In this document: positions 11,219 through 31,263 of the stretch, piece after piece
Layout of the letters: every line of letters starts with the position of its first letter
How positions within the stretch are numbered: the stretch's first letter is position 1
Assembly: GCA_019187665.1 (NCBI GenBank)
Contig: JABARH010000003.1
Span: 222,982-254,981, forward strand
Source of the DNA: Anaerolineales bacterium
Lineage (GTDB): Bacteria; Chloroflexota; Anaerolineae; Anaerolineales; Villigracilaceae
Length of the DNA: 32,000 nt
Direction of reading: 5' to 3'
The notes under the pieces: generated by a model
The model's input: the letters and a program-made list of their open reading frames with translations, nothing else
The model's database searches: none
Told to the model about the DNA's origin: nothing
Position numbers and translations under genes: made by a program

Positions 11219-11773
11219 CTACTTTAACAAGGTAGCGTAGTACAACGCCGCGCCGATATGGACGAACGCCGAAATGAACAACGCGATGCCGATGGGGATA
11301 TGAACGGTATGCCAGAGCGCCAAAAGACGACGCGCTTGCTTGAGAGCCTCTTGTGAGAGCGTCCCCTCAATCTCCAATCCGTCCATGGTGCGCGGGATGC
11401 GGGTGAAGACATAACGCCCGATGAATCCGCTAACGACGATAATGATAGTCAGTAAGGTTGTCGCGCCGGCGATGCCGTTGAATTTCCACGAGGTGTGAAG
11501 CAAAACCATGTACGGTCCCACGATCCCGGTAAAAATATGGAATTGAAGCCACGTAGACATCCTCCCCCACTGTACAGTGCGACTCCGTTTGCGCAGGCTG
11601 TATAACGTCTCTGTCATCATCATTAAGACAAAGCCGACGATTCCGACGCCGTGACCGAACAACTCGCCCGCCGGGGGAATCGAGCGCGTGAAAAAAACAA
11701 CCAGCGCGTAGATCCCTGTGATCAACGCCATCGCCAAAAACGCCAACCATAATTCTTTGTTGCCACGAAGCAT
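11219..11773 (-). CDS. Five-TM membrane protein with two H-x13-H pairs (putative di-heme b-type electron carrier)
   Basis: Starts at the ATG at 11773, 3 nt after a GGAGGG RBS (11777-11782). Predicted helix 3 carries H79 and H93, and helix 5 carries H158 and H172, each pair with 13 intervening residues. Confidence 0.65.
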   Translation of the reverse strand: MLRGNKELWLAFLAMALITGIYALVVFFTRSIPPAGELFGHGVGIVGFVLMMMTETLYSLRKRSRTVQWGRMSTWLQFHIFTGIVGPYMVLLHTSWKFNGIAGATTLLTIIIVVSGFIGRYVFTRIPRTMDGLEIEGTLSQEALKQARRLLALWHTVHIPIGIALFISAFVHIGAALYYATLLK

Positions 11774-11790
11774 AAACCCTCCAAAGATTC

Positions 11791-13089: not shown

Positions 13090-13352
13090 GATTTCCTCCT
13101 GGCAAACAAATCCGTCCTCTCGAACCGCAACGCCCCGCGCGGGCAACGCGCCACACACTCGCCGCACGCCAGGCAATGACTGTGGATCACCGGCTCATTC
13201 CGCCACGCATGAGCGCGCACGTCAATTCCCACCGGGCAGTGATATGTGCAAATCCCGCACTGCACACAACGCGCGGGGTCCGGCGCCACCAGCCCCGCAG
13301 CGAGAACCGCATGCTTCTTCGCGTCATGTTGAAAGAGTCCCAAGATTGCCAT
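13086..13352 (-). CDS. 2x[4Fe-4S] ferredoxin-type protein
   Basis: CVQCGICTYHCP and CLACGECVARCP are two canonical 4Fe-4S cluster motifs. The ATG at 13352 is preferred over the listed TTG at 13415, but the start is uncertain. Confidence 0.8.
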   Translation of the reverse strand: MAILGLFQHDAKKHAVLAAGLVAPDPARCVQCGICTYHCPVGIDVRAHAWRNEPVIHSHCLACGECVARCPRGALRFERTDLFARRKS

Positions 13353-13698: not shown

Positions 13699-15804
13699 AT
13701 GCCCTTCCTCTTCCAAAAATTTCACAACTGGAAATACAGCGCGCAGACGATCCTCCTCGGCGCGGCCCTGCTCGCCTACGGACTCTTTGCCGGTCAACAG
13801 GGTTTCCACTGGGATGATTGGGGCTTCGTGTGGATGATGCGCTTCGGCGGCGCGGAACGTCTGCTGGATTATTTCTCTGTGGCGCGGCCCGTGCTGGCGC
13901 GGATGTATCTCGTCACCCTGCCCCTGCTCGGAGCGAATCCGCTCGCGTGGCAGGTCTTCGCATTGTTCTGGCGCGCCGCCTGCGCGATCGCCATGTGGTG
14001 GGCGCTTAAGCAAATCTTCCCAAAATATCCGCGAGAAATTTTCTGGATTTCCCTGCTCGCCCTCGTTTACCCCGGCTTCAGCCAACATTCCATCGCCATC
14101 GCCTACGGACATTACTCGCTGCTCTTCACCGCCTTCTGGCTCTCGCTTGGATTGATGATCGTCGCCCTGCGCGCCGAAAAACGGAAATGGATTCCCCTAT
14201 CGGCGGCGCTGATTCTTTCTGCGTGGTCGCTGTTTTCGGCGGAATACGCATTCGGATTGGAATTACTTCGCCCGGTATTTCTATGGTTTGCAATCGCCAA
14301 TGCCTCCGATACGCTCAAAACAAAAATAATCAAAACCCTCCGCGCTTACATCCCCTATCTCCTGATCCTCCTGGCTTTTATCATCTGGCGCGTCTTCATC
14401 TTCGGCTTCCAAATGTACGACGCCGAACTGTTCGACTCGAGCGCGACAGGCGCGCCCAGCGGACTGTCCGCCCTGCCGCGCATGATCGTAGACGCGTTGC
14501 TCAACGCCTCCGTCCGCGCCTGGACCGGCCTGCTCGATTTCTCCGCCTATGCCGATTTCGGCGCGCGCCTGCTCACGCTCACCTTGATCATCATCATCGG
14601 CGCATTCCTTTTCCTCGTCCACTACGATTCTCACTTATCACTTATCACTCGTCACTCATCACTTCCCGCTCCTCACTCCGCACGATCTTCCCAACCTCTA
14701 CTCCCCTTCACCCTCCTCGGCATCCTCGCCCTCCTCACCGCCGGGATTCCGTTCTACGTCGCCGGTCTCCCCATCACATTAAATTTCCCCAACGACCGCT
14801 TCACCATGTCCTTCGCGTTCGGCGCGGCAAGCCTGCTGGTCGGTCTCATCAATTTGATTCGCAAAAACGAATATCGCGCCGTCGCGTTAAGTCTGCTCGT
14901 CGCGCTCAGCATCGGCAAACAGATTCAATTCGCGCATGCCTTCCGCGAAGACTGGGAACTGCAAAAAAGTTTTTTCTGGCAACTCACCTGGCGCGCCCCG
15001 CAGATCGAGCCGGGCACTGCCCTGCTCTCCGACGATTCCGCGATTCGATTCTCCACCGACTATTCCCTCGCCGGTCCGCTCAACTGGCTCTACAACCCCG
15101 GCAATCCCAACGGCGGCGTGGACTACGCCTACTTTTTCATCGGCACGCGCCTGCATCACGAACTGCCCGACCTCAAAGAAAATCTACCCATCCAATCCAA
15201 CGTCCGCCTCTCAAGTTTCAGCGGCAACACCAGCGACATGCTCGTCTTTCAATTCCGCACGCCCGCCTGCCTGCACATCCTCGATCCAAAATATGATTCA
15301 GACATTCCCGCGCCGCCCAATTCAATTAGTGTGACGAAGGACATGCTCGCGGACGGAATCCCCGTTCTGACCGCGCGGACCTTGCAAGCCCTGCCCCTCT
15401 CCGATGTTTCCCGCATCGTGACTGACGGGACAGCGGGCGCCGCGCCTCCATCCTTTCTCTTCGGGACAGAGCCGCCGCATACATGGTGTTACTACTTCCA
15501 AAAAGCGGACCTCGCCCGTCAATCTGGCAACTGGGAACAAGTTGCAGAACTCGGCGACCAAGCCTTCGCGATTCCCTATCTGCCGGACGACGCCTCCGAA
15601 TTCCTCCCGTTCATCGAAGCCTATCTGCGCCTTGGACGAATGGACGACGCCCGCCAGTGGACGCGCAACGCCAGCAGGCAGATGCCCGTTATCGCTCCAG
15701 CCCTGTGCGCCGTGTGGCAGAGAGTCGCCGCGGATGAAATCGCCATCCCCGAATCCGCGCTGGAAAAAACGATCCGCGAATTAAAATATTGCCCGTCGCA
15801 ATAG
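13699..15804 (+). CDS. Large polytopic membrane protein, GT-C/ArnT-PMT-like glycosyltransferase fold suspected, with a C-terminal soluble TPR-like region
   Basis: More than 10 predicted TM helices. There is an acidic HWDDWGF motif in the first loop, as in GT-C enzymes. The C-terminus has helical-repeat-like sequence (GNWEQVAELGDQAF...AYLRLGRMDDARQW). The function is inferred only from this architecture. Confidence 0.6.
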   Translation: MPFLFQKFHNWKYSAQTILLGAALLAYGLFAGQQGFHWDDWGFVWMMRFGGAERLLDYFSVARPVLARMYLVTLPLLGANPLAWQVFALFWRAACAIAMWWALKQIFPKYPREIFWISLLALVYPGFSQHSIAIAYGHYSLLFTAFWLSLGLMIVALRAEKRKWIPLSAALILSAWSLFSAEYAFGLELLRPVFLWFAIANASDTLKTKIIKTLRAYIPYLLILLAFIIWRVFIFGFQMYDAELFDSSATGAPSGLSALPRMIVDALLNASVRAWTGLLDFSAYADFGARLLTLTLIIIIGAFLFLVHYDSHLSLITRHSSLPAPHSARSSQPLLPFTLLGILALLTAGIPFYVAGLPITLNFPNDRFTMSFAFGAASLLVGLINLIRKNEYRAVALSLLVALSIGKQIQFAHAFREDWELQKSFFWQLTWRAPQIEPGTALLSDDSAIRFSTDYSLAGPLNWLYNPGNPNGGVDYAYFFIGTRLHHELPDLKENLPIQSNVRLSSFSGNTSDMLVFQFRTPACLHILDPKYDSDIPAPPNSISVTKDMLADGIPVLTARTLQALPLSDVSRIVTDGTAGAAPPSFLFGTEPPHTWCYYFQKADLARQSGNWEQVAELGDQAFAIPYLPDDASEFLPFIEAYLRLGRMDDARQWTRNASRQMPVIAPALCAVWQRVAADEIAIPESALEKTIRELKYCPSQ
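14631..14679 (+). repeat. Heptamer tandem repeat inside the membrane-protein CDS
   Basis: The units are TCACTTA TCACTTA TCACTCG TCACTCA TCACTTC CCGCTCC TCACTCC, encoding SHLSLITRHSSLPAPHS between two hydrophobic segments. Confidence 0.8.
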
Positions 15805-15841
15805 TGCCGCAAGATTTATCTTGCGCGCAGAGGCTATAACA

Positions 15842-17479
15842 ATGAAGCAGACCTACGACTACGTCATCATCGGCTCGGGATTCGGCGGAAGCGTTTCCGC
15901 CATGCGTCTCGCCGAAAAAGGATATTCGGTGCTCGTCCTCGAAAAAGGGAAACAATTCGAGGATAAGGATTTTGCAAAAACAAACTGGCAGTATTGGAAA
16001 TACCTGTGGCTGCCCGCCCTGCGCGCGCACGGCATTTTGCAGATCAGCATCCTCAAAGGGGTGATGGTCATGCACGGCACGGGCGTGGGCGGAGGCAGTC
16101 TTGGTTATGCCAACGTCCTCGAAGTCCCCACCGCTGAAACGTTTGCGACTCCCGCATGGAAGCAAAACCTGTCCTGGGGAAAAATCCTCGAGCCGCATTA
16201 TGCCACCGCCAAAAAAATGCTCGGCGCGGCGCGCAACCCAAAACTTTGGAAGGCGGACCTGCTCCTGAAAGATTTCGCCGAGGAACGCGGCATGGGACAC
16301 ACCTTCCGCGCCACCGAAGTCGGCGCATACTTCGGCGAGGCGGGCGTCACCGTCGCGGACCCATACTTCGGCGGAGCGGGACCCGACCGCGCGGGATGCC
16401 GTCACTGCGGCGGGTGCATGGTGGGGTGTCGTCACAACGCGAAGAACACACTCCCAAAGAATTATTTGTATTTCGCGCAGAAGAACGGCGCAGAGGTAAT
16501 GGCGGAGGTTGAAGTTGTAGATGTAAAACCGCTGACAATTAACAGCGGACAGTTGACTGCCAGCCACCAACCATCAACTACCAACGGCACTCGTTACGAA
16601 ATCACCTACCATTCCTCCACATCTCCATTCAAGCGCAAGCGAACAATCCATGCCAAGAACGTCGTCTTCTCCGCGGGCGTAATGGGAACGATGCGCCTGC
16701 TTTTGAATTTGCGCGACGTAAAAAAATCCCTGCCGAATCTTTCGCCGCGTCTCGGCCACATGGTACGCACCAACTCCGAAGGTCTGCTCGGCTCGCTGGC
16801 GCGCAACTCAGACATCAACTATTCAGAGGGCGTCTCCATCTCTTCCATCTATAACCACGACGAGGTCACGCGCGTCGAGCCGGTGCGCTACCCCGACGGG
16901 TCCAGCCTGATGCGCTTCCTCGCCGCGCCGCTGATCGAAAAAGACATCCCCGTTATGATGAGGATTCTGAAATTCATCGCCTGGTCGCTGACTCACCCGC
17001 TCGATTTTCTAAAGGCGCTCTTCCTGCCGGACTGGGCGCACAACACCACCATTCTGCTCGTCATGCAAAACGCCGACAACCGCATGAGATTCCGCATGGG
17101 CCGCAGTTTCTTCACACTCTTTCGGCGCGGTCTGGTCGCGGACGAGGAGCCTGGCTACACGATCCACGCGCAAGTCGGCGGCTCGCACGAACTGACGCGC
17201 GAATTCGCCCAACGCACCAACGGCATCGCGCTCGGCTCCATCGGCGAAAATTTGCTCGGCTTGCCCACCACCGCGCACATCCTCGGCGGCGCGCCCATTG
17301 GAAAAAACGCCGAAGACGGTGTTGTGGATGAAAATTTTGCCATCCACAACTACCCCGGCCTCTACATCATTGACGGCTCGATCATGCCCGCCAATCCCGG
17401 CGTCAACCCGTCACTGACAATCACCGCCCTCGCGGAATATGCGATGAGTCGGATTCAAGGGAAGTATGTAGACAAGTAG
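15842..17479 (+). CDS. GMC-family FAD oxidoreductase (cholesterol-oxidase/choline-dehydrogenase-like)
   Basis: YDYVIIGSGFGGSVSAMRLAEKGYSVLVLEKG is the GMC N-terminal FAD fold. The C-terminal LYIIDGSIMPANPGVNPSLTITALAE is the GMC signature. The ATG at 15842 is preferred over the listed TTG at 15821. The last codons (VDK-stop) lie in the octamer array. Confidence 0.9.
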   Translation: MKQTYDYVIIGSGFGGSVSAMRLAEKGYSVLVLEKGKQFEDKDFAKTNWQYWKYLWLPALRAHGILQISILKGVMVMHGTGVGGGSLGYANVLEVPTAETFATPAWKQNLSWGKILEPHYATAKKMLGAARNPKLWKADLLLKDFAEERGMGHTFRATEVGAYFGEAGVTVADPYFGGAGPDRAGCRHCGGCMVGCRHNAKNTLPKNYLYFAQKNGAEVMAEVEVVDVKPLTINSGQLTASHQPSTTNGTRYEITYHSSTSPFKRKRTIHAKNVVFSAGVMGTMRLLLNLRDVKKSLPNLSPRLGHMVRTNSEGLLGSLARNSDINYSEGVSISSIYNHDEVTRVEPVRYPDGSSLMRFLAAPLIEKDIPVMMRILKFIAWSLTHPLDFLKALFLPDWAHNTTILLVMQNADNRMRFRMGRSFFTLFRRGLVADEEPGYTIHAQVGGSHELTREFAQRTNGIALGSIGENLLGLPTTAHILGGAPIGKNAEDGVVDENFAIHNYPGLYIIDGSIMPANPGVNPSLTITALAEYAMSRIQGKYVDK

Positions 17480-17539
17480 ACACGTACACACGTAGACACG
17501 TAGACACGTACACACGTAGACACGTACACACGTAGACAC
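17468..17539. repeat. Octamer microsatellite, 9 units (GTAGACAC/GTACACAC)
   Basis: Nine contiguous 8-nt units, counted directly. The first two units contain the final codons and the TAG stop (17477-17479) of the GMC gene. It uses the same unit family as 4067-4123. Confidence 0.95.
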
Positions 17540-17684
17540 GTATCTCGTATCTCGTATCCCGTATCCCGTATCCCGTAACCCGTAACCCGTATCCCGTAAC
17601 CCGTATCCCGTATCCCGTAACCCGTAACCCGTATCCCGTAACCCGTATATCCCGTAACCCGTATCCCGTATCCCGTATCCCCCC
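17540..17684. repeat. Heptamer microsatellite, 20 units (GTATCTC x2, then GTATCCC/GTAACCC, one unit expanded to 9 nt)
   Basis: Counted directly. Eighteen units carry CCC on the plus strand, which reads as GGG-N4 periodicity on the minus strand. The array ends 22 nt before the kynureninase ATG. Confidence 0.95.
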
Positions 17685-17705
17685 TTCATCCTTTACAATA
17701 AACAC

Positions 17706-18980
17706 ATGTCCACTTTCTCCCCCTCCCGCTCTCACGCCCTCGAACTCGATCAACAAGACCCCCTCGCCTCCTTCCGCGAACGCTTCGTCATCAGCGACTC
17801 CGAACTGCTCTACATGGACGGCAACTCGCTCGGTCGTCTGCCCAAAGCCGCAGTGGAACGCACCCGTCAAGTCGTCGAAACCGAATGGGGACAAGACCTC
17901 ATTCGCGGCTGGAACAAAGGCTGGTGGGAAGCGCCGCAACGCGTCGGCGACAAGATCGGACAACTGACCGGCGCCGCACCGGGTCAAGTCATCGTCAGCG
18001 ACACAACCTCGCTCAACCTCTACAAACTCGTCATGGCGGCGTTAATGCACCAACCGAATCGCAAACGCATCATCAGCGACGCATTCAACTTTCCCTCCGA
18101 TCTTTATATCTTGCAGGGCTGCGCCAACGTATTCGGCAACCGCCACGAAATCATTCGCGTCGGTTCGCAAGACGAAGGATTGACTCCCGATCTCAACGCG
18201 CTCGAATCCGCCATCAACGAAGACACCGCCCTCGTCACGCTTTCGCACGTCTTCTTCAAAAGCGGCTACCTCTACGACATGCAACACATCACCGACCTCG
18301 CCCACCGCAAGGGCGCGCTCGTCTTGTGGGACCTCTGCCACTCCGTCGGCGCCCTGCCCATCCAACTCGACGCCTGCAACGCCGACCTCGCCATCGGTTG
18401 CACCTACAAATATCTCAACGGCGGACCCGGCGCGCCCGCCTTCCTCTACGTCAACAAAAATATTCAGCAAAAAATGGTCTCACCCATCTGGGGCTGGTGG
18501 GGACAAAACAAACCGTTCGACTTCGGTCTCGATTACGAACCCGCGCCCGGGGTCAACCACTTCCTCGTCGGTTCCCAGCCGATACTCTCCCTGCTGATGA
18601 TGGAATCCGCGCTCGACCCGACTCTCGAAGCCGGGCTGGATTCCATCCGCCAAAAATCGGTCGCGCTGACGGGCTACCTGATCCACCTCGCCGACGAGAT
18701 CCTCTCCCCGCTGGGATTCCGCCTCGGCTCCCCGCGCGCAGCGGATCGGCGCGGCTCGCACGTCTCCCTCCGCCATGCCGACGCGTACCGCATCAACCGC
18801 GCGTTGATCGAGGAGCTGAACGTCATCCCCGACTTCCGCGCCCCCGACAACATCCGCCTCGGGCTCGCGCCGCTCTACACGACCTTCGTCGAGGTGTGGG
18901 ATACAATAGACCGCATCCGCCGCGTGATCGAGGAAAAACGCCACGAAAAATATCCGCAGACCAGACTCACGGTAACATGA
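17706..18980 (+). CDS. kynU: Kynureninase (PLP-dependent)
   Basis: The N-terminal [14 protein letters not shown]...YMDGNSLG, the WDLCHSVGA motif and the PLP-lysine motif [13 protein letters not shown] are characteristic of KynU. Confidence 0.9.
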
Positions 18981-21313: not shown

Positions 21314-21442
21314 TCGGTAATTTCTCTACCGTACATGAGAAGATTTTTACCGCAAAGCACGCTAAGGTCGCCAAGTTAAAAAGGTTTTCTTTGCGTTCTT
21401 TGCGGGCGTAGCGGTGCAAATGTACGGTAGAGAGTCGGTAAT
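21314..21442. mobile_element. MITE-like nested hairpin element with terminal inverted repeats and flanking 8-nt direct repeats
   Basis: The perfect 14-bp inverted repeat is TCTCTACCGTACAT (21323-21336) and ATGTACGGTAGAGA (21420-21433). The direct repeat TCGGTAAT sits at 21314-21321 and 21435-21442, one nt outside each inverted repeat. The core (21349-21415) is a 3 x 9-mer / inverted 3 x 9-mer hairpin related to the ggt insertion. Confidence 0.7.
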
Positions 21443-21641: not shown

Positions 21642-22163
21642 ATGAGCGATTTTTTTGAAAAAGTGACCAGTGGTCAAGACATCTTCAAAAACCTGGCCAG
21701 CAAGATTCCAGGCTTTGGCGGCTATGTGGAACGCCAGAACCGCCGCGCAGCGGATAAACTCCTGCGCGAGACCGCAGCCCGCCGCTTCGAAGAACTGTAC
21801 GCGCGCGCTTCCGCCCTCCAGGCGGATCTCGCATCGAATGGAATGATCTCTGTTGTGGACGACATGGAAAAGGCGGCCATCAAAATCCGCACCTTCATAG
21901 ACAAGGTCGGCATGGCGGCCTACGGCACATCCGGGTTGTTCGACGCGGTCAAGATCAACGAAAAGGAACTCGAGCAACTTTACCAGTTCGACAGCGGATT
22001 CTTCGCCATCGGCGACCAGATCGCATCCGCCCTCGACAACGTGGAGGCCAGCCTCGGCGACGAAGACGCCCTGCCCGCCGCCATCCGCAACGTCACAAGT
22101 CTCGCCCGCGAGGCCGTCAAACTCTTCGAGCGCCGCGCCGAAGTTTTCACAGGTTCCCAGTAA
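21642..22163 (+). CDS. Hypothetical helical protein (173 aa), family not recognised
   Basis: A strong AGGAGG RBS lies 6 nt upstream of the ATG. The composition looks protein-like and the gene is followed by a 15-bp-stem hairpin. Confidence 0.7.
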   Translation: MSDFFEKVTSGQDIFKNLASKIPGFGGYVERQNRRAADKLLRETAARRFEELYARASALQADLASNGMISVVDDMEKAAIKIRTFIDKVGMAAYGTSGLFDAVKINEKELEQLYQFDSGFFAIGDQIASALDNVEASLGDEDALPAAIRNVTSLAREAVKLFERRAEVFTGSQ

Positions 22164-22167: not shown

Positions 22168-22200
22168 AGGCCCTAAAGGTTTTCCAAACCTTCAGGGCCT
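22168..22200 (+). terminator. Hairpin after the hypothetical gene, immediately upstream of the molybdenum hydroxylase cluster
   Basis: AGGCCCTAAAGGTTT (22168-22182), loop TCC, then AAACCTTCAGGGCCT (22186-22200), with one mismatch. There is no strong T-tract. Confidence 0.45.
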
Positions 22201-22209: not shown

Positions 22210-23607
22210 ATGTGGCGCCAATACATCACTGTCACCGCTGTTGAAGAAGCCGTCCGCATTCTGGGCGAAAAAGGGGAACGCGCCCGCATCGTGGCCGGAG
22301 CCACCGACCTGATCCTCGAACTGGAACGCGGGGTTCGCCGCGGCGTGGACACGCTGATTGATATCACGCGCGTCCCCGAACTCGACCGCATCCGCCTGGA
22401 CGAGGCTGGGACACTCCATCTCGGTCCGCTCGTGACGCACAACAACGCAGCCGCCTCTCCCCTCCTCCGCAGCCGCGCCTTCCCCCTGGCGCGCGCCGCG
22501 TGGGAAGTGGGCGCGCCGCAGATCCGCAACCGGGCCACCATCGCGGGCAACCTGATCACCGCCTCGCCTGCCAACGACACCATCACCCCGCTCATGGCGC
22601 TCGACGCCAGCGTGACCCTGCTCTCCGCGCGCGGCGCGCGCAGCCTGCCATTGCGCGAGTTTTACACCGGCGTCCGAAAGACCGTCATGCAAGCCGATGA
22701 AATACTCGTGGATATTTCCTTCCCTGCCCTGAAAGAGACACAGCACGGGACGTTCATCAAAATGGCGCTGCGGCGCGCGCAGGCCATCTCCATCGTCAAC
22801 GCTGCGGTCATTCTGGATATACGGGCGGATACTGTCCATTCGGCTGCAATCACCCTCGGAGCGGTCGCGCCCACCATCCTTCACGCGCTCGAAGCGGAAA
22901 AATGGCTGGCGGGCAAGGACCTCAGCGAGGAGGCCATCGCCGAAGCGGCGCGACTCGCCATGCAGGCCAGCCGTCCCATAGACGATATCCGCGCCTCCGC
23001 CGCGTATCGCCGCGAGCTGGTGCGCGTCAGCGTCCTGCGCGCCCTGCAACGCCTGCGCGATGGAACAGAACGAAACGACATGCCGGAGCAGCCGATAGTG
23101 CTGGGACAAATCGCTCCAGGATTGGGAATTCAGAATTCAGAATTCCCAATGATGCCGATCGAAACCAGCGTCAACGGCAGGAAAATGACATTTGCGACCG
23201 GCCACGAAAAAACATTATTACGCCTATTACGCGAAGATGGTTTATTAACCGGCACGAAAGAGGGCTGCGCCGAGGGGGAATGCGGCGCATGCACCGTTTT
23301 CCTCGACGGCCAGGCGGTGATGGCGTGCCTCGTCCCCGCGCCGCGCGCACATGGCGCGGAGATTGTCACCGTCGAAGGACTCGCAGCGGACGGGCAATTA
23401 CATCCTGTGCAGGAAGCCTTCATCCGGCATGGCGCGGTTCAGTGCGGATACTGCACGCCGGGCTTTATCATGTCTGGCGCAAAATTGCTGGAGGAGAGGC
23501 CGCACCCCACACAGAATGAGATCCAACAGGCATTCAGCGGCAACCTATGTCGCTGCACCGGTTACTACAAAATCATCGAGGCCGTCGAATCGGCCGGCAG
23601 GAGTTGA
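22210..23607 (+). CDS. Fused FAD-binding (CoxM/XdhB-like) and [2Fe-2S] (CoxS/XdhC-small-like) subunit of a xanthine-dehydrogenase-family molybdenum hydroxylase
   Basis: The N-terminal ~290 aa show the FAD_binding_5 pattern (ARIVAGATDLILELERG, IRNRATIAGNL, ASAAYRREL). The C-terminal 150 aa carry both 2Fe-2S motifs (CAEGECGACTV and QCGYCTPG...CRCTGY). One uninterrupted frame joins them through a ~25-aa linker. Confidence 0.9.
   Translation: MWRQYITVTAVEEAVRILGEKGERARIVAGATDLILELERGVRRGVDTLIDITRVPELDRIRLDEAGTLHLGPLVTHNNAAASPLLRSRAFPLARAAWEVGAPQIRNRATIAGNLITASPANDTITPLMALDASVTLLSARGARSLPLREFYTGVRKTVMQADEILVDISFPALKETQHGTFIKMALRRAQAISIVNAAVILDIRADTVHSAAITLGAVAPTILHALEAEKWLAGKDLSEEAIAEAARLAMQASRPIDDIRASAAYRRELVRVSVLRALQRLRDGTERNDMPEQPIVLGQIAPGLGIQNSEFPMMPIETSVNGRKMTFATGHEKTLLRLLREDGLLTGTKEGCAEGECGACTVFLDGQAVMACLVPAPRAHGAEIVTVEGLAADGQLHPVQEAFIRHGAVQCGYCTPGFIMSGAKLLEERPHPTQNEIQQAFSGNLCRCTGYYKIIEAVESAGRS
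23122..23149. repeat. 28-nt near-palindrome with three tandem GAATTC-containing heptamers in the interdomain linker
   Basis: TTGGGAATTCAGAATTCAGAATTCCCAA has three units (GAATTCA GAATTCA GAATTCC) flanked by the 10-bp perfect inverted repeat TTGGGAATTC/GAATTCCCAA. An in-frame ATGATG begins within its last base (23149-23154). Confidence 0.9.
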
Positions 23608-23609
23608 CC

Positions 23610-24032
23610 ATGTCAAAATACGGCAATGTGCGAACGGCCACCCCGCCCAAAAGCCGCCGCGAACCACATCCCGTCTGGCGGGGAATCGGTTGTTTTATGA
23701 TGCTTTTTCTCCCCGTGATCTCGTATGCCATCAGCATGTTAACGGTGGACGAGGCCATCCGGCAGGGTATCCGCCTGCCAGAGGGACTGGTCAGGAATCC
23801 GGTGATGCCGGAGATCCTGTTCATGGTACCGGGATTGGTGGACCTGTTGTATTGGATCCAGGCGCAGACTAATTTGTACGCGTATCTGCTGGTGACTTTC
23901 TTTATCCTCATTTTTCTCGGCGGCATCTTCAGCTTCATTTACGCGTTGATCTATCGCGTTGTCGGCCCCCCCGCCTACTCCGAGTTCGACGCTCCGCCGC
24001 CGAAGGTTAAAGTTAAAAAATATCGAAGATAA
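23610..24032 (+). CDS. Small two-TM membrane protein embedded in the molybdenum hydroxylase operon
   Basis: The ATG at 23610 follows GGCAGGAG and lies 2 nt after the upstream stop. There are two hydrophobic helices (GIGCFMMLFLPVISYAISMLTV and AYLLVTFFILIFLGGIFSFIYALIY) and a basic tail (KVKVKKYRR). The next gene starts 4 nt after its stop. Confidence 0.7.
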   Translation: MSKYGNVRTATPPKSRREPHPVWRGIGCFMMLFLPVISYAISMLTVDEAIRQGIRLPEGLVRNPVMPEILFMVPGLVDLLYWIQAQTNLYAYLLVTFFILIFLGGIFSFIYALIYRVVGPPAYSEFDAPPPKVKVKKYRR

Positions 24033-24036
24033 CCGC

Positions 24037-26226
24037 ATGGCTGAAATTTCGATCGGTAAATCGCTGCCGCGCATAGATGCGCGCGATAAAGTGACCGGAC
24101 AGGCGCTCTATTCGGGCGACCTCGCCGCCCCCGGCCTCCTGCACATGCAAATACTCTTCGCGGGACGGCCCCACGCGCGCATTGCGCGCATTGACGCGCA
24201 GGCTGCCGAATCCGCACCGGATGTAGTGGCTGTTTTCACGTCGAAGGATGTGCCGGTAAACGAGCGCGGACTCCAGATCCAGGACCAGCCCGTGCTGTGC
24301 GGACCGGGGCCGACTCCCCCGCAGGGGGTCGCGACCGATATCGTGCGTTTCGAAGGGGATCAGGTCGCGGCCATCGTCGCCCGGTCTGAAGCGGCTGCGG
24401 CCGCGGCTTTGAAGTTGATTCAAGTGGAATACGAGGATCTGCCCGGCGTATTCGATCCGGTGGATGGAATGCAGCCCGCCGCGGCGCAGTTGCATCCCGA
24501 ACGCGGCGACTCGAACGTCTGCGTGCATTACAAGATTCGCAAAGGGGATGTGGAAGACGGTTTCGCCGGGGCGGATGTGATCATTGAGGGCGAATACAAA
24601 ACCCCCTATCAGGAACACGCCTACCTCCAGCCGGAAGCGGGCATGGCATACATTGACGAAGAGGGACGCGTAACCGTCGTCGCGGGCGGGCAATGGCCTC
24701 ACACTGACGTGCGCGAGATCGCGCATTGCCTCGGCCTGCCGCAGGAACAGGTGCGCGTGATCTATCCGGCCATCGGCGGCGCATTTGGCGGGCGCGAAGA
24801 TATGTCCGTGCAGATCGTTCTGGCGTTGGCGGCCTGGAAATTAAAGCGCCCGGTGCGCATCATCTGGTCGCGGCGCGAGTCGATCATCGGTCACGGCAAA
24901 CGTCACCCATCCACGCTCAAAGCAAAATGGGGCGCGACGAAAGACGGCATGCTGGTCGCCGCCGAAGTGGAAATGATCGCCGACGGCGGCGCGTATATGT
25001 ACACTTCCAACAAAGTGCTGGGAAATTCGGCCATCACCTGCACGGGACCGTATTTCATCCCGAATGTTAAAGCGGATATTTACGGCGTGTACACCAACAA
25101 CGTCCCGACCGCCGCCTTTCGCGGATTCGGCGCGCCGCAGGCGTTGTTCATGGCCGAATCGCAGATGAACAAACTCGCGGAAAAGCTCGGCATGGACCCG
25201 GTTGAGTTGCGCCTGAAGAACGCGCTGAAAGAAGGCGACCTGCTCAACGTTGGCACCCCCGTCCCGCTGCCGGTCACCAGCTCCAAAGTCATGAAAGAAG
25301 CGGCAAAGAAATTCGGCTGGGACAAGCCCGCATCGAATCGTTCACCATCCATACTGCGGCGCGGGCGCGGCTTCGCGGCCGGTTTCAAAAATATCGGATT
25401 CAGTTTTGGTTATCAGGAAAATTGCTGGGCAAAGGTTGAAATTCACGGCAATGGGAAAATCGAAAAAGTGATCGTGTATCACGCGGGCGCGGAGGTGGGA
25501 CAGGGCGCGCACACCGTCATGGCGCAAATGGCCGCCCACGCATTGGGCGTCGGCGCGGACAAAATAGAAATGCACACGATGGACACCGCCATCACCGGCG
25601 ATTCCGGCTCGGTCTCTGCCTCGCGCATGACATTCATGGCGGGCAATTCGATCAAGGGCGCGGCCGAGGCGGCGCTGAAAAAATGGCAGGCCGAGGAACG
25701 TCCCGCCATCGCCGAATACAAATATTTTGCGCCGGGCACGACTCCCTTTGAAAAAGAAACCGGGCGTTCGATGCCCAACTTTGCTTATGCCTATGTCGCG
25801 CAAGCCGTGGAAGTGGAAGTGGATACCGAAACCGGCCACGTGCGCGTGATCCGCATCACCTCCGCGGACGATGTGGGCAAGGCGATCAACCCCGCCCTCG
25901 TGCAGGGACAGATCGAGGGTGCGATTGTGCAGGCACAGGGCCACACCATTCTCGAAGATATGAAAGTGAGGAATGGAAAAATCCTGACCGACCAATTCAG
26001 CACGTATCTCATCCCGACCATTCACGACATTCCCGAAAAAGTGGAATCGGTCATTGTCGAAGAGCCGGATCCCAACGGGCCCTGGGGCGCGCGCGGCGTG
26101 GGCGAACCGCCCTTCCTGACGGTCGCGCCGGCCATCATCGCCGCCGTCCACGACGCGACCGGCATATGGCTGGACGAATTCCCCATCACACCGGAGCGCG
26201 TACTGCGCGCGCTTGGAAAAATTTAA
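24037..26226 (+). CDS. Molybdopterin-binding large subunit of a xanthine dehydrogenase/aldehyde oxidase-family hydroxylase
   Basis: Starts at the ATG at 24037 (MAEISIGKSLPRIDARDKVTGQALY). It has AAFRGFGAPQ (the XDH-type active-site motif, not the CODH VAYRCSFR loop), GGAFGGRED, and C-terminal RGVGEPP with the catalytic Glu. Confidence 0.92.
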   Translation: MAEISIGKSLPRIDARDKVTGQALYSGDLAAPGLLHMQILFAGRPHARIARIDAQAAESAPDVVAVFTSKDVPVNERGLQIQDQPVLCGPGPTPPQGVATDIVRFEGDQVAAIVARSEAAAAAALKLIQVEYEDLPGVFDPVDGMQPAAAQLHPERGDSNVCVHYKIRKGDVEDGFAGADVIIEGEYKTPYQEHAYLQPEAGMAYIDEEGRVTVVAGGQWPHTDVREIAHCLGLPQEQVRVIYPAIGGAFGGREDMSVQIVLALAAWKLKRPVRIIWSRRESIIGHGKRHPSTLKAKWGATKDGMLVAAEVEMIADGGAYMYTSNKVLGNSAITCTGPYFIPNVKADIYGVYTNNVPTAAFRGFGAPQALFMAESQMNKLAEKLGMDPVELRLKNALKEGDLLNVGTPVPLPVTSSKVMKEAAKKFGWDKPASNRSPSILRRGRGFAAGFKNIGFSFGYQENCWAKVEIHGNGKIEKVIVYHAGAEVGQGAHTVMAQMAAHALGVGADKIEMHTMDTAITGDSGSVSASRMTFMAGNSIKGAAEAALKKWQAEERPAIAEYKYFAPGTTPFEKETGRSMPNFAYAYVAQAVEVEVDTETGHVRVIRITSADDVGKAINPALVQGQIEGAIVQAQGHTILEDMKVRNGKILTDQFSTYLIPTIHDIPEKVESVIVEEPDPNGPWGARGVGEPPFLTVAPAIIAAVHDATGIWLDEFPITPERVLRALGKI

Positions 26227-26299
26227 GACCCCCAATGAACGCGCGGAGCGCGTATGTTATCTCGCAGATCTTCGTTTTAGGATTCCCGCCAGAAAAAAA

Positions 26300-27193
26300 A
26301 TGTCCTTCCCCTATCTTTCCGAAACCGAAGACCTGACAGACGCCATCCGCTCCAAGGCGGATGGTTCATTCATCCGCCTGGCGGATGGCATGTGCCACTA
26401 CGAGCTCTCGCCTCTCCCTTCGACCGGGAACGATGCAAAAGCCACCGTTGTTCTCGTTCACGGGTTTTCCGTCCCCTGCTTTATCTGGGACCCCACTTTC
26501 GACTTCCTCGTTCGGTCCGGCTTCCGCGTCCTGCGTTATGACCTGTTCGGGCGCGGCTACTCGGATCGTCCGCGAACAAACTACGGCGTCGAACTCTACC
26601 TCCGCCAGTTATGCGGCCTGCTCGACGCGCTCGACCTGCGCCAACCGATCCATCTCGCCGGACTTTCAATGGGCGGAGTCGTCTCCGTCGCGTTCACTGA
26701 GCGTTTCCCCGAGCGCGTCTCAAAATTGATCCTCGTAGATCCTGCCGGGGCAAAGCCCATCGCCCGCACGCCGCTCCTCAAATTGATTCAGACTCCCATC
26801 CTCGGCGAACTGACGCTCGGCCTGGGAGGCGACAACTTCCTGCTCAACAGCATGGCCGCCGACTTCTTCGACCCGGACCTGATCCAGCATTTCATCGGAC
26901 GCTACAAACCGCAGATGAAGATCAAAGGCTTTAAGCGCGCGCTCCTCTCCACGATCCGCAACAACCTGCTCGGCGATTTCTCCGAAACCTATCGCCGCGT
27001 GGGAACGCTGAACACGCCGACGCTCCTTTTTTGGGGCCGTAATGACGCGACCGTTCCCTTCGCGCATAGCGCGCTGGTCACAGAATTCATCCCGCGCGCG
27101 GAACTGCACGTCATCGAAAATACCGGCCACATCCCGCACTACGAAGCGCCCGGCGAAGTCAACCCGCTTTTGTTAGAATTCATACTCAGATGA
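26300..27193 (+). CDS. Alpha/beta-fold hydrolase
   Basis: HGFSVP (oxyanion region), the GLSMGG nucleophile elbow, and C-terminal GHIPHYE with the catalytic His. The ATG at 26300 is preferred over the listed earlier start, which overlaps the large subunit. Confidence 0.85.
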   Translation: MSFPYLSETEDLTDAIRSKADGSFIRLADGMCHYELSPLPSTGNDAKATVVLVHGFSVPCFIWDPTFDFLVRSGFRVLRYDLFGRGYSDRPRTNYGVELYLRQLCGLLDALDLRQPIHLAGLSMGGVVSVAFTERFPERVSKLILVDPAGAKPIARTPLLKLIQTPILGELTLGLGGDNFLLNSMAADFFDPDLIQHFIGRYKPQMKIKGFKRALLSTIRNNLLGDFSETYRRVGTLNTPTLLFWGRNDATVPFAHSALVTEFIPRAELHVIENTGHIPHYEAPGEVNPLLLEFILR

Positions 27194-27687
27194 ACAAACA
27201 AAATATTCAACTTCTCTTTCATTACAACTCCTGGGCAAACGAACGCATCTTGCGCGCCGCCGAGCGGGTGACCGCCGCACAATTTATCGCGCCCTCCGAT
27301 TTCCCGCATGGCGGGTTGCGCGGCGCCCTCGTCCACACACTATTCGCGGAATGGCTCTGGCGCAGACGCTGTGAAGGCGTCTCCCCCACAGAGCGGCTCA
27401 AAGACGAAGATTTTCCGACCCTCGCCGTTCTACGCGACCGCTGGAAACAGGAAGAAACGAAACTCAACCTCTTCATCGAATCCCTCACCGACTCCCAATT
27501 GAACAGCCCGCTGGAATACAAAAACACACAAGGTGTCGCCATGCGCGAGCCGCTCATGTGGACCCTCCTCGCGCACCTTGTCAATCACGGCACGCAACAT
27601 CGCGGCGAGGCGGCGGCCATACTCACCCAGCTCGGTCACTCCCCCGGCGACATTGACTTGATCATTTTCCTGCGCGAACAAAAATAG
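27190..27687 (+). CDS. DinB-family (DinB/YfiT-like four-helix) protein
   Basis: LFHYNSWANERIL and HLVNHGTQHRGE are DinB-family motifs with the His triad. The start overlaps the hydrolase stop (ATGA). Confidence 0.8.
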   Translation: MNKQNIQLLFHYNSWANERILRAAERVTAAQFIAPSDFPHGGLRGALVHTLFAEWLWRRRCEGVSPTERLKDEDFPTLAVLRDRWKQEETKLNLFIESLTDSQLNSPLEYKNTQGVAMREPLMWTLLAHLVNHGTQHRGEAAAILTQLGHSPGDIDLIIFLREQK

Positions 27688-27709
27688 CGAACAGGCCGTT
27701 TAACCCGCC

Positions 27710-28411
27710 ATGAAAAAGATTTTCGATTCCATCCACTCCGTCCGCTATCGCCTCTTCCTGTTCTTCCTGCTCGGCGGCGCAACCGTCGTCTCTGTCGCGC
27801 TCTATCGCTTTCGCGGAGCATGGTACAACGAAACCGGCTACTCCTTCCTCGTCTGGAATCTCTTCCTCGCCTGGATTCCCCTCGGCTTCGCCTACGCCGC
27901 CTGGGTCATGGCATGGAACCGCCGCCTGCTCTTTCTCGCCATCACCGTCACAGCCTTCCTCTGGCTGATCTTCTTCCCCAACGCGCCCTACATCCTGACC
28001 GACTTCCAACACCTCGGCAACCCCAGCGAGATCGTCCCCATCTGGTTCGACGTGATCCTCGTCGTCTGGTTCGCATGGACCGGACTCCTGCTCGGCGTCA
28101 TCTCGCTCTACCTCATGCACGACGTTGTCCATCGCGCCTTTGGACGCGCCGCGGGCTGGCTCTTCGTCTGCCTCGTTTCCTTCCTCAGCGGCATCGGCAT
28201 TTACATCGGGCGTTTCATTCGCTGGAACTCATGGGATATCCTCCAGCAACCCAACGATATTTTCTACGGCTTCGTCCAGGGCGTCAGCAATCCCAGCCTG
28301 CGCTCCATCGGCGTCACCGCGTTATTCGGGGCGTTCTTCCTCTTTGTCTACCTGACGTTCTACACCTTCGGACATCTCCTGCGCGACGATCACAACCGGC
28401 GGGAAGCATGA
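27710..28411 (+). CDS. DUF1361-family integral membrane protein
   Basis: LVWNLFLAWIPL, FFPNAPYILTDFQHL and RWNSWD match the DUF1361 pattern from memory. It has about 6 TM helices. Confidence 0.7.
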   Translation: MKKIFDSIHSVRYRLFLFFLLGGATVVSVALYRFRGAWYNETGYSFLVWNLFLAWIPLGFAYAAWVMAWNRRLLFLAITVTAFLWLIFFPNAPYILTDFQHLGNPSEIVPIWFDVILVVWFAWTGLLLGVISLYLMHDVVHRAFGRAAGWLFVCLVSFLSGIGIYIGRFIRWNSWDILQQPNDIFYGFVQGVSNPSLRSIGVTALFGAFFLFVYLTFYTFGHLLRDDHNRREA

Positions 28412-29211
28412 CACGCCGCCTCATCCTCCTGCGCGGCGGCGGCGACCTCGCCAGCGGAGTCGCCCTGCGGCTTTTCCACGCCGGCTTCGAGGTCGTCATC
28501 GCCGAACTGCCGCAACCGCTCGCCGTGCGCAGACTCGTCTCGTTCTCCGAAGCAGTCTACGAGGGGCAGATCACCGTCGAGGATGTAACCGCCCGGCATG
28601 TCACGCCGGAACGAATCGAGGCGGCGCTCTCCCACCGCGAGATTCCCGTCATCGTGGATCCCGAAGCGGACACACTGCGCGACCGGCAATACGACATCGT
28701 CATTGACGCGCGCCTGCTCAAAACGCCTCCCCAACCGCTCCCACTCTCCATTCCGCTTCTCATTGGACTCGGACCCGGCTTCACCGCACCCAACGACTGC
28801 CACGCCGTCATCGAAACCCAGCGCGGACATTATCTCGGGCGCGTCTATTGGAGCGGCTCCGCCGCGCCAAACACACAGACACCGGAAGGCGATCCGCGCC
28901 GGGTCTTGCGTGCAAACACGGATGGCATCTTTTTCACGCGCGCAACTTTGGGCAAACACGTTGAGCCAGATCAATTGATCGCCGAGATCCAACCGGAAAA
29001 TGAAACGATAAAATTCGGAATTACATCTTCTTTCCCCGGCGTCCTGCGCGGACTGCTCCGCGACGGTATGCCAGTGACGCGCGGACTCAAGATCGGCGAC
29101 GTGGACCCGCGCGACAACCCCGACTATTGCAGGCTGGTCTCAGACAAAGCGCTGGCAGTCGCAGGCGGCGTGATCGAAGCCATCCTGTTGCACCAAAGCC
29201 GGGAACGATAA
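28408..29211 (+). CDS. yqeB: YqeB-family selenium-dependent molybdenum hydroxylase maturation protein
   Basis: The ATG at 28408 overlaps the DUF1361 stop (ATGA). LLRGGGDLASGVALRLFHAGFEVVIAELPQPLAVRRLVSFSEAVYEG matches the YqeB N-terminal pattern (GAGDIASGVA-x-RL...VRR-x-VSF). The listed 463-aa ORF upstream is an out-of-frame overlap. Confidence 0.8.
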   Translation: MTRRLILLRGGGDLASGVALRLFHAGFEVVIAELPQPLAVRRLVSFSEAVYEGQITVEDVTARHVTPERIEAALSHREIPVIVDPEADTLRDRQYDIVIDARLLKTPPQPLPLSIPLLIGLGPGFTAPNDCHAVIETQRGHYLGRVYWSGSAAPNTQTPEGDPRRVLRANTDGIFFTRATLGKHVEPDQLIAEIQPENETIKFGITSSFPGVLRGLLRDGMPVTRGLKIGDVDPRDNPDYCRLVSDKALAVAGGVIEAILLHQSRER

Positions 29212-29225
29212 ACGTCACGCACACC

Positions 29226-29936
29226 ATGCCCCTCATCCCTGCCCTGATTTTATTTCTCGGCGCGTTCACCCAAAGCATGACCGGCTTCGGGAGCGCTTTG
29301 GTCGCCATGTCCATCCTGCCTTCCCTGCTGGGGCTGGACATTGCCGCGCCGCTCGTTGCCGCAACGGGATTAATTCTCGAAATCATGCTGATCCTGCGCT
29401 ATCGTCAGTCTCTGCGCCTGGACGCCATCTGGCGCGCGCTGGCCGCCTCGCTCGCCGCCGCGCCGCTCGGCGTGCTGGCGGTTCGCCACATTAACGAACG
29501 CGCCGCGCTGTTCCTGCTCGGCTTGCTCCTCGTCGCGTACAGTCTCTACGCCCTCAGCGGCATCCGCCTGCCCGCCCTCACGCATCCGCTCTGGGCGTGG
29601 GCCACCGGCCTGCTCAGCGGACTGCTCGGCGGCGCGTACAACACAGCCGGCCCGCCGATCGTGGTTTACGGAAACTGCCGCGGCTGGGACGCGGCGCAAT
29701 TTAAGAGCAACCTGTCCGGCTTCTTCATCATCAACAGCCTATTCGTCACAACCAGCCACGCCGTGAACGGAAACTTCACATCGGAAGTAATGCGCCTCTT
29801 TCTGCTGTGCATCCCGGCCACCGCGCTTGGATTCATCGTCGGGCAATCCATGGACCGCTGGCTCGACCCGCAGCGTTTTCGCAAAATCGTGCTGGTCTTG
29901 CTGATCGCCCTCGGCGCCAGATTGATGCTCGGATAA
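29226..29936 (+). CDS. TauE/SafE (DUF81) family anion transporter
   Basis: Starts at the ATG at 29226. It has about 7-8 TM helices, FTQSMTGFGSALV near the N-terminus and GLLGGAYNTAGPPIV in the second half, as in TauE/SafE permeases. Confidence 0.8.
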   Translation: MPLIPALILFLGAFTQSMTGFGSALVAMSILPSLLGLDIAAPLVAATGLILEIMLILRYRQSLRLDAIWRALAASLAAAPLGVLAVRHINERAALFLLGLLLVAYSLYALSGIRLPALTHPLWAWATGLLSGLLGGAYNTAGPPIVVYGNCRGWDAAQFKSNLSGFFIINSLFVTTSHAVNGNFTSEVMRLFLLCIPATALGFIVGQSMDRWLDPQRFRKIVLVLLIALGARLMLG

Positions 29937-29955
29937 CCCGGAGTACAATCCACGC

Positions 29956-31263
29956 ATGAATTTATTGCGCGCGCTGCGATTCCAGCCAGACACAGGCCGC
30001 AACCGGGTCGCGTTCGTTGGAGCCGGGGGAAAAACCACATCCATCTTTCAGCTGGCGCGCGAACTGCCCGCGCCGGTCCTCGTCGCATCCACGACACACT
30101 TTGGCGCGTGGCAAACGCGCCTGGCCGATACGCATCTCGTGGCAGAAATGCCCGACGATTTCGACCGGATTTCAATCGAGGGCGTCATCCTTGCAACCGG
30201 TCGCGTGGAGGGAGATCGCACCACGCCGCTGCCGGCCCGCGTTTTGAATCATGCGCGCGCACTGGACATCCCCCTGCTCATCGAATGTGACGGCGCGCGC
30301 GGCCTGCCCCTCAAAGCCCCTGCTGAACACGAGCCGCCCATCCCCGATTTTGTGGATACGGTCGTCGTCACTGCGGGATTAAGCGGACTCAGCCAGCCGC
30401 TGGATGACTCACACATTCACCGCCCGCTTCTCTTCTCAACGTTGAGCGGGCTTGGCCCTGGCGAGCCGCTCACGCCCGCAGGCGTGACGCGCGCCCTGCT
30501 CCATCCCGAGGGCGGCTTGAAAAATATTCCGCCGGGCGCGCGCCGCGTGTGCCTGCTCAACCAGGCCGACACGCCGGAACTGCAATCCGCCGCGCAAGCC
30601 ATGAGCGAAACCCTGCTGGAAAAATACGATTCAGTGATCATTGCCAGCCTGAAAGATAAGATCGTTCATGCCGTCCACGAACGCGTGGCGGGAATCATTT
30701 TGGCGGCGGGAGAATCGACCCGTTTCGGGCAACCAAAACAAATCCTCGATTGGCGCGGCGAGCCGTTTGTCCGCGTGGTGGCGAAGCAGGCGCTCGCGGC
30801 CGGACTCGCGCCGGTGATCGTAGTTACCGGCTCCCACGCCGGCCTGGTGGAAAATGCGCTCAAGGAGTTGGATGTAGCGATCGTTCACAACGAGGATTGG
30901 CGGGGCGGCCAGGGACGATCTATTGCAAAAGGAGTCGCCGCGCTTCAGGAAAATATCGGCGCGGTCCTATTTCTATTAGCGGACCAGCCGCAGGTCACAG
31001 CAGAGGTGATGCGCGCGCTGATCGAACTGCACCGGCGCGAAATGCCCGCGATCGCCGCGCCCCTCATCCTTGAGGAGAGACGCGGTAATCCCGTTCTCTT
31101 CGACCGCGCCGCCTTCACGGATCTGCTGTCGCTGCAAGGCGATGTCGGAGGCCGGGGAATCTTCCACAAGCATACAGTCGCCTATCTGCCCTGGCACGAT
31201 GACGCGTTATGGCTCGACGTGGACACGCCGGAAGATTATGAACGGCTGCTGCGCGCAACATAA
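29956..31263 (+). CDS. Fusion of YqeC-family selenium cofactor biosynthesis protein and MocA/YgfJ-like molybdenum cofactor cytidylyltransferase
   Basis: The N-terminal VAFVGAGGKTTSIFQLA...VLVASTTH is the YqeC P-loop pattern. The C-terminal half, GIILAAGESTRFGQPKQIL...LLADQP...LDVDTPEDY, is a MobA-like NTP-transferase (MocA type). Confidence 0.85.
   Translation: MNLLRALRFQPDTGRNRVAFVGAGGKTTSIFQLARELPAPVLVASTTHFGAWQTRLADTHLVAEMPDDFDRISIEGVILATGRVEGDRTTPLPARVLNHARALDIPLLIECDGARGLPLKAPAEHEPPIPDFVDTVVVTAGLSGLSQPLDDSHIHRPLLFSTLSGLGPGEPLTPAGVTRALLHPEGGLKNIPPGARRVCLLNQADTPELQSAAQAMSETLLEKYDSVIIASLKDKIVHAVHERVAGIILAAGESTRFGQPKQILDWRGEPFVRVVAKQALAAGLAPVIVVTGSHAGLVENALKELDVAIVHNEDWRGGQGRSIAKGVAALQENIGAVLFLLADQPQVTAEVMRALIELHRREMPAIAAPLILEERRGNPVLFDRAAFTDLLSLQGDVGGRGIFHKHTVAYLPWHDDALWLDVDTPEDYERLLRAT

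Follow-up and report, generated by a model that had tools for sequence, protein, structure and literature searches.

The window analysed here is a stretch of 32,000 nucleotides (nt) from an Anaerolineales bacterium (contig JABARH010000003.1, positions 222,982 to 254,981 of the forward strand), and nine plus-strand genes within it, at 22210-31263, very probably form an operon that encodes a hydroxylase of the xanthine dehydrogenase (XDH) family together with the genes for its maturation. The hydroxylase is, on balance, likely to depend on selenium through maturation by YqeB and YqeC. As far as can be read from the sequence, the cluster fits the third selenium utilisation trait, which was reportedly also defined by Zhang et al. 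in 2008. According to Haft and Self (2008, PMC2276186), this trait brings an XDH-family enzyme into one gene cluster with YqeB, YqeC and YgfJ/MocA. Dependence on selenium is favoured because both YqeB and YqeC score above their cut-offs, the core of the cluster is conserved, no XdhC adjoins it, and the closest solved relative of the catalytic subunit is the selenium-containing nicotinate dehydrogenase (NDH) of Eubacterium barkeri (3HRD). The genes were defined by listing and translating the open reading frames (ORFs) of the window, and were numbered g1 to g9 in order along the plus strand, in coordinates of the whole stretch.

A preliminary description of this DNA had named g7 as YqeB and g9 as a fusion of YqeC and MocA. 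When both proteins were scored with hidden Markov models (HMMs), the YqeB and YqeC assignments held, each of them above the NCBI curated cut-off. The g7 protein gave a full-length match (6-261) to TIGR03309 (YqeB) with 267.2 bits, the cut-off being 220, and residues 18-221 of g9 matched TIGR03172 (YqeC) with 150.4 bits, for a cut-off of 73.05. The YqeC part of g9 was also recognised by Pfam (1.4e-30) and carries the P-loop GAGGKTT, encoded at 30019-30039. For residues 246-431 of the same protein, the best-scoring family was TIGR03310 (MocA/YgfJ), aligned over positions 2-188 of 188 with 153.3 bits (cut-off 186.45). The YqeC-MocA fusion is widespread in Anaerolineales, and homologues from metagenome-assembled genomes (MAGs) of this order bear the NCBI names 'selenium-dependent molybdenum cofactor biosynthesis protein YqeB' and 'selenium cofactor biosynthesis protein YqeC'. 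In the source MAG, YqeB is labelled as hypothetical (HFACDABA_00407), and an identical sequence is also present in SRA assemblies.

The g7 protein is a short form of YqeB that lacks an XdhC domain. An AlphaFold model obtained from 30 homologues (pLDDT, the predicted local distance difference test, 82.6; pTM, the predicted template modelling score, 0.81) predicts an N-terminal Rossmann-like domain with the sequence RGGGDLASG, a barrel-sandwich domain and a C-terminal helix. The barrel-sandwich (residues ~165-235) was superposed on biotin carboxyl carrier proteins with target-normalised template modelling (TM) scores of 0.80-0.85 and root-mean-square deviations of 1.7-1.9 over ~71 residues, in agreement with the similarity of YqeB to AccB noted by Johnstone and Self. 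Among homologues from Chloroflexota to Firmicutes, Cys241 (in CRLVSDKA) is the sole invariant cysteine of YqeB, and it would be the natural candidate for a carrier of selenium or of the cofactor. The idea that YqeB is a cryptic homologue of XdhC was unsupported, with an hhalign probability of 6% and only the first Rossmann beta-alpha-beta unit aligned; no XdhC structure appeared among the best 50 Foldseek matches of the model in the PDB. Low-threshold Pfam scans of YqeB, and of the 173-aa protein encoded upstream of g1, returned only noise.

The conservation of the cluster was followed in 17 related loci (L numbers), taken from a scan of species-representative genomes and from context look-ups. 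A core order was found in seven Chloroflexota/Anaerolineales loci (L002, L003, L009, L010, which is fragmented, L011, L015 and L016), in which the gene of the 173-aa protein is followed by those for the fusion of the flavin adenine dinucleotide (FAD) and iron-sulfur (FeS) domains, the 140-aa membrane protein, the molybdenum (Mo) subunit, the hydrolase, the DUF1361 protein and YqeB. In these loci, identity to the window was 55-69% for YqeB and 74-81% for the Mo subunit, the latter in the five loci with an intact gene. In two of the seven (L015 and L016), YqeB has the YqeC-MocA fusion on its downstream side, and unrelated genes come after YqeB in L002, L003, L009 and L011. In L004 and L017, YqeB and/or YqeC-MocA are surrounded by housekeeping genes, and the nearest 10 kb contain no hydroxylase. 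Directly after the fusion gene, a stand-alone second MocA-like gene is found in L004 (12213-12851), L015 (11397-11984), L016 (11329-11907) and L017 (11323-11904); its position is taken in the window by a minus-strand DedA/VTT gene. Because of this comparative occurrence, the hydrolase, DUF1361 and YqeB appear firmly tied to the enzyme, YqeC-MocA and TauE more loosely, and DinB not at all. As a separate observation, the FAD/FeS and Mo subunit genes of L010 (4293-8331) are split into many short ORFs, which are probably long-read assembly frameshifts and not true pseudogenes.

The preliminary description had seen no XdhC-type chaperone in the window, and the searches agreed with it: Pfam and tblastn were both negative, the latter with a probe taken from L014 that matched neither the window nor the Anaerolineales loci, and no XdhC adjoins any Anaerolineales copy of the cluster. 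The sole match to an XdhC domain in the window was a Rossmann cross-match (E = 0.0028) in a 3-hydroxyacyl-CoA dehydrogenase. With the same probe, XdhC was detected directly after YqeB in two Firmicutes loci (L006 and L007), in line with the frequent fusion or adjacency of YqeB and XdhC (Haft and Self 2008, PMC2276186). No SelD-like or XdhC-like coding sequence was revealed by Pfam scans of the other long ORFs of the window, and no AIR-synthase-type gene was present in the yqeC-mocA contexts P0165, P0223 and P0260 of relatives. The cluster had also been described as lying outside the usual Firmicutes/enterobacterial context. As regards the taxon this is correct, but the setting is not new, as the trait was already listed for Chloroflexi by Peng et al. 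(2016, PMC5029168), whose Table S1 gives SelD, YqeB and YqeC for Anaerolinea thermophila UNI-1, Caldilinea aerophila and Chloroflexi oral taxon 439. A literature search found no paper on the Chloroflexi enzyme itself.

The g3 protein has the domain set of the large subunit of XDH/aldehyde oxidase enzymes, with Pfam matches to Ald_Xan_dh_C (1e-23), MoCoBD_1 (4e-85) and MoCoBD_2 (3e-61). Both of the motifs quoted in its first description were located in g3, AAFRGFGAPQ at 25111-25140 and GVGEPP at 26095-26112, and together with GGQWPH, as carriers of the catalytic Glu and of the Gln and Phe at the Mo site, they align with bovine XDH and with NDH. Its assignment to the XDH type rather than to the carbon monoxide dehydrogenase (CODH) type was also borne out, the pucD model giving 592 bits and the CODH models 252-278. 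None of the NCBIfam models was matched at its equivalog cut-off: the scores were 592 of 784 bits for pucD, 476 of 780 for XdhA, 460 of 830 for Se_dep_XDH (TIGR03311) and 452 of 995 for the alpha subunit of 4-hydroxybenzoyl-CoA reductase (4-HBCR), and g3 was also below the cut-off of TIGR02965. Among solved structures, the best match was the E. barkeri enzyme (3HRD), with its NdhL and NdhM chains taken together; NdhL aligned with residues 6-430 of g3 (288 bits) and NdhM with residues 552-725 (175 bits). For the active-site core, of ~180-185 residues, the scores were 174 bits for NdhL, 104 for the aldehyde oxidoreductase of Desulfovibrio and 101 for bovine XDH, and the identity of g3 was 49% to NdhL versus 38.5% to bovine XDH.

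The active-site positions of g3 are named here by the bovine XDH numbering (Glu802, Arg880 and Glu1261). The equivalents of the catalytic Glu1261 and of Glu802 are kept (GGRED versus bovine GGKET), and the equivalent of Arg880, which in xanthine enzymes serves with Glu802 to bind and activate xanthine, is Asn (VLGNSAI versus bovine SIMERAL). Because of this Asn, and because no equivalog cut-off was reached, g3 is placed in an uncharacterised clade and is probably not a canonical xanthine dehydrogenase. The same Asn, together with the closest resemblance being to nicotinate dehydrogenase, makes an N-heterocyclic carboxylate or a similar compound a more likely substrate than xanthine.

The positions of the genes and of the neighbouring features are collected in Table 1. 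The nine co-directional genes had been described as separated by ATGA overlaps or by gaps of 2 to 73 nt, and the ORF coordinates matched this, with spacings from g1 to g9 of 2, 4, 73, -4 (ATGA), 22, -4 (ATGA), 14 and 19 nt. The gaps of 14-22 nt and the ATGA overlaps indicate co-transcription. The remaining family labels of that description (FAD plus 2Fe-2S, hydrolase, DinB, DUF1361 and TauE/SafE) were confirmed by Pfam.

Table 1. Genes of the hydroxylase cluster and features at its 5' side, in coordinates of the whole 32,000-nt window.
Feature	Position	Strand	Length	Basis or remark
g1: FAD + 2x[2Fe-2S] fusion	22210-23607	+	465 aa	Pfam
g2: membrane protein, unannotated family	23610-24032	+	140 aa	hydrophobic segments
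g3: molybdopterin-binding large catalytic subunit, XDH type	24037-26226	+	729 aa	Pfam, NCBIfam
g4: alpha/beta-fold hydrolase	26300-27193	+	297 aa	Pfam
g5: DinB-family protein	27190-27687	+	165 aa	Pfam DinB 6.5e-19
g6: DUF1361 integral membrane protein	27710-28411	+	233 aa	Pfam DUF1361 6e-43
g7: YqeB (EF2563 family)	28408-29211	+	267 aa	NCBIfam TIGR03309
g8: TauE/SafE-family anion transporter	29226-29936	+	236 aa	Pfam TauE 6.7e-26
g9: YqeC-MocA fusion	29956-31263	+	435 aa	NCBIfam, Pfam YqeC + NTP_transf_3
173-aa soluble protein gene	21642-22163			no Pfam match; directly upstream of g1
GC-rich hairpin between the 173-aa gene and g1	22168-22200	+		RNA fold -20 kcal/mol, z = -5.9

The hairpin lies directly 3' of the stop codon of the 173-aa gene and 9 nt before the start codon of g1, and has no clear U-tail. 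Equivalent hairpins follow the 173-aa gene in L002, L003, L009, L011, L015 and L016, several of them with a U-run, and that of the window probably terminates the upstream gene and delimits the operon on its 5' side. The operon is taken to start at g1 because the hairpin separates it from the 173-aa gene in the window and likewise in the relatives. The 173-aa gene adjoins the hydroxylase cluster on its upstream side in all relatives (65-77% identity); it was considered as a tenth member of the operon and rejected, since its synteny is kept but the terminator hairpin stands before g1 in the relatives too. Downstream, the operon is bounded by the minus-strand DedA/VTT gene, the next one past 31263. 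A conserved stretch, GTGTTAGAAT...AAGGAA, is found ahead of the g1-type start codon in L002, L003 and L011, and the window lacks such a stretch. A consensus scan for promoters and terminators gave counts no higher than expected from shuffled sequences, no Rfam match (riboswitch or other RNA regulation) reached the gathering score in the window, and no tRNA, and so no tRNA-Sec, was found in it.

The complete electron-transfer complement of the XDH/aldehyde oxidase family, an FAD domain and two [2Fe-2S] domains, is contained in g1, with the FAD domain (FAD_binding_5, 3e-45; CO_deh_flav_C, 6e-26) N-terminal and the Fe-S domains (Fer2, 1e-5; Fer2_2, 1e-33) C-terminal. Identity to this protein was 70-77% in L002, L003, L009, L011, L015 and L016. 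The g2 protein has two strong hydrophobic segments and was matched by neither Pfam nor NCBIfam, a low-threshold Pfam scan giving only noise. Its homologues numbered 31 (111-140 aa) in a word-indexed search, and a profile search of 1.84 billion representatives extended the family to 411 clusters (50% identity), of which 292 had E <= 1e-10. Two invariant motifs flank the helices, HPxWRGIG ahead of the first and YRxxGPPxYxxxDAPP behind the second. In every context that was read, the g2-type gene comes directly after a g1-type FAD plus Fe-S fusion gene. This includes L013 (10001-10423), which has no adjacent Mo subunit gene, and L014 (10001-10414), in which the neighbouring chaperone is XdhC and not YqeB. 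From this gene order, g2 would partner or anchor the FAD/FeS subunit at the membrane, independently of the selenium question, and this unannotated two-helix family is the most interesting by-product of the analysis.

The g4 protein has the nucleophile motif GLSMGG and matches Abhydrolase_6, Abhydrolase_1 and Hydrolase_4 in Pfam, and it corresponds to no NCBIfam equivalog, the best model being PcaD with 100 bits for a cut-off of 256. It had been proposed that the hydrolase and the DinB protein act downstream of the enzyme. For the hydrolase the proposal is supported, as a g4-type gene follows that of the Mo subunit wherever the cluster occurs among the related loci (seven of them), and g4 probably acts on the product of the hydroxylase. 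For DinB it does not: no equivalent of g5 was found at the matching position in any related locus, and since DinB is in the window only, a role in the pathway has no comparative support. The gene is a local accessory addition of this genome only.

The DUF1361 protein (g6) has about six hydrophobic segments, and its gene is translationally coupled to yqeB by the ATGA overlap. The DUF1361-YqeB pair was kept in L002, L003, L005, L009, L010, L011, L012, L015 and L016. The DUF1361 gene overlaps or abuts the start of yqeB in all Anaerolineales loci where the hydroxylase is retained, the coordinates overlapping in most of the loci with called genes; in L009, for example, DUF1361 at 9309-10004 and YqeB at 10001-10798 overlap as in the window. 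A TauE gene, with a product 76% identical to g8, is found at the matching position in L015, and is absent from L016 and from the short-form loci. Literature searches found neither a function of DUF1361 or a link of it to selenium or molybdenum, nor anything useful linking TauE to selenite. It may be speculated that both proteins act in the delivery of selenium or of another anion.

Taken together, these genes suggest the following scheme. By its domain content, the g1 fusion takes up electrons from the molybdopterin (MPT) subunit g3, and it would be tethered to the membrane by g2. By its family function, the MocA half of g9 would convert Mo-MPT into the cytidine dinucleotide form of the cofactor (MCD). 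YqeB, as comparative genomics and clostridial genetics suggest, would then install a labile selenium ligand on Mo in place of the usual sulfido ligand, and so would fill the role that XdhC has in enzymes of the sulfur type. The selenium would come from selenophosphate made by SelD, and the P-loop YqeC half of g9 probably assists YqeB in this step. The product of the hydroxylase would be processed by the conserved hydrolase g4. A more elaborate variant, a membrane-tethered selenium hydroxylase in which g2 anchors the FAD/FeS subunit and YqeB, DUF1361 and TauE take up or hand over selenium or another chalcogen, is improbable as a whole; if true, these would be the first membrane components of a selenium-insertion route.

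Several observations weigh against a selenium-dependent enzyme. A tblastn search with an E. coli SelD probe, which itself scores 620 bits against PRK00943, detected no selD in the window or in any of the 17 loci, covering in related loci the 10 kb around the cluster. In most of the close relatives YqeB adjoins the enzyme and YqeC is not close by, the MocA half of g9 falls under the TIGR03310 equivalog cut-off, and over the N-terminal half of g3 the margin in favour of the selenium enzyme is small, with 40% identity to NdhL versus 35% to 4-HBCR alpha. No sequence signature is known to separate selenium-type from sulfur-type large subunits. About 80% of the organisms with the selenium-cofactor trait are anaerobes, and the GMC oxidoreductases and a globin-like protein encoded nearby hint at an aerobic lifestyle. 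Deletion of yqeC in C. difficile had no phenotype, and some genomes have YqeB or YqeC without the complete trait, so that either protein alone may serve selenium-independent processes (Peng et al. 2016, PMC5029168).

In a rival reading, this would be an ordinary sulfur-type hydroxylase of the XDH family with the usual terminal sulfido ligand and no selenium, in which YqeB and YqeC-MocA replace XdhC as general chaperones of MCD maturation or insertion. It would suit the lack of a selD match in the sequences searched, the possible selenium-independent roles of YqeB or YqeC, the yqeC deletion without a phenotype and the possibly aerobic organism. Such a reading would also suit the best NCBIfam match of g3, which is the pucD model of a sulfur-type Bacillus enzyme, and most of the probability left over by the selenium-dependent reading goes to it. 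It is nevertheless doubtful, as both YqeB and YqeC are above their cut-offs here, and TIGR03309 is confined to selD-positive genomes in a set of 26 non-redundant species (Haft and Self 2008, PMC2276186). Within the Chloroflexi, the three genomes with both markers all have SelD as well (Peng et al. 2016, PMC5029168). In C. difficile, yqeB is genetically tied to selD, its deletion reproducing the phenotype of selD loss on xanthine and urate (PMC11448449), and the DOPDH enzyme purified from a selD mutant of C. sporogenes was inactive (bioRxiv 10.1101/2025.04.24.650524).

It is also conceivable that the accessory genes serve another Mo hydroxylase encoded elsewhere, their adjacency to this one being inherited synteny without functional meaning. 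The accessory genes of L004 and L017, which have no hydroxylase gene in their 10-kb surroundings, would be accounted for in this way, and the related loci all come from one taxonomic order, so that their common arrangement of genes could be inherited rather than selected. Against it, YqeB stays beside the enzyme down to 55% YqeB identity (L016) though other flanking genes change, the spacing of the genes points to co-transcription, and no second hydroxylase is encoded in the window. This reading is very unlikely.

Other features of the window were recorded apart from the cluster. A GMC-family oxidoreductase is encoded at 15821-17479 and a kynureninase-like gene lies at 17706-18980; the pair (15821-18980) was considered as part of the pathway and set aside, as a minus-strand DeoC gene separates it from the cluster and the pair is not syntenic in the relatives. 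Directly upstream of the GMC-family gene, a 701-aa ORF without a Pfam match (13699-15804) is a putative gene. A perfect 14-nt inverted repeat (21323-21336 and 21420-21433, with 83 nt between the arms), perhaps a small element with a mobile or regulatory role, sits in the 580-bp intergenic region of lower GC that separates the 173-aa gene from the DeoC gene. On the minus strand, an apparent operon at 9946-13176 encodes, besides a multi-haem cytochrome c of 421 aa, a membrane protein resembling cytochrome b561 and a pyridine-nucleotide-disulfide oxidoreductase. A gene pair for a thiolase and a 3-hydroxyacyl-CoA dehydrogenase (2874-4986) has a PIN-domain toxin-like gene (2092-2487, minus) on one side and a MazE/AbrB-type antitoxin-like ORF (4847-5359, plus) on the other.

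The placement of selenium on the Mo cofactor is less well understood than either of the other two ways in which bacteria use selenium, and the genetics so far come entirely from purine-degrading gut Firmicutes. The operon adds an environmental example from the Chloroflexota, with an uncharacterised client enzyme whose active-site core is nearer to that of nicotinate dehydrogenase than to that of xanthine dehydrogenase. It thus widens the enzymes and contexts in which YqeB can be studied, with g2, DUF1361 and TauE as candidate partners. Because the trait is already catalogued in the Chloroflexota, its value is incremental, and the operon alone does not render the mechanism of this step easier to test. 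The genomes surveyed by Peng et al. (2016, PMC5029168) share the phylum, the class and the YqeB plus YqeC pair with the window; that survey gives presence or absence only and describes neither the client enzyme nor its operon and the membrane genes conserved with it.

When compared with the known selenium-cofactor loci of Enterococcus faecalis (EF2563-EF2570), Clostridioides difficile and E. coli (ygf/yqe), in which SelD, YqeB, YqeC and YgfJ/MocA accompany XDH-family enzymes, the cluster has the same TIGR03309 and TIGR03172 families grouped with an XDH-family hydroxylase, along with a MocA-like domain that scores best, though below the cut-off, against TIGR03310. It differs from them in that selD is not adjacent and the purine-catabolism genes ygeW, ygeX, ygeY, hyuA, ssnA and ygfK are missing from the window. 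Here YqeB is of the short form without XdhC, YqeC is fused to MocA, and an FAD/FeS fusion with the membrane partner g2 is present, in addition to DUF1361 and TauE. The sulfur-type PucABCDE system of B. subtilis, which uses the MCD cofactor, likewise has a cytidylyltransferase gene (PucB, MocA-like) in its operon, and its PucD is the best model for g3. Unlike that system, g3 lacks the Arg880 equivalent, and YqeB and YqeC are encoded in place of a PucA/XdhC-type chaperone. The selenium-containing nicotinate dehydrogenase of E. barkeri (NdhF/S/L/M) has the same organisation of FAD, 2x[2Fe-2S] and Mo-pterin as the cluster. Its genes for nicotinate fermentation have no counterpart near the cluster in the window, and at the Glu802-type and Arg880 positions it has Leu and Arg, in contrast to the Glu and Asn of g3. 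In E. barkeri the Mo subunit is split into L and M, whereas in the window it is a single 729-aa chain and the FAD and Fe-S domains are fused in one protein.

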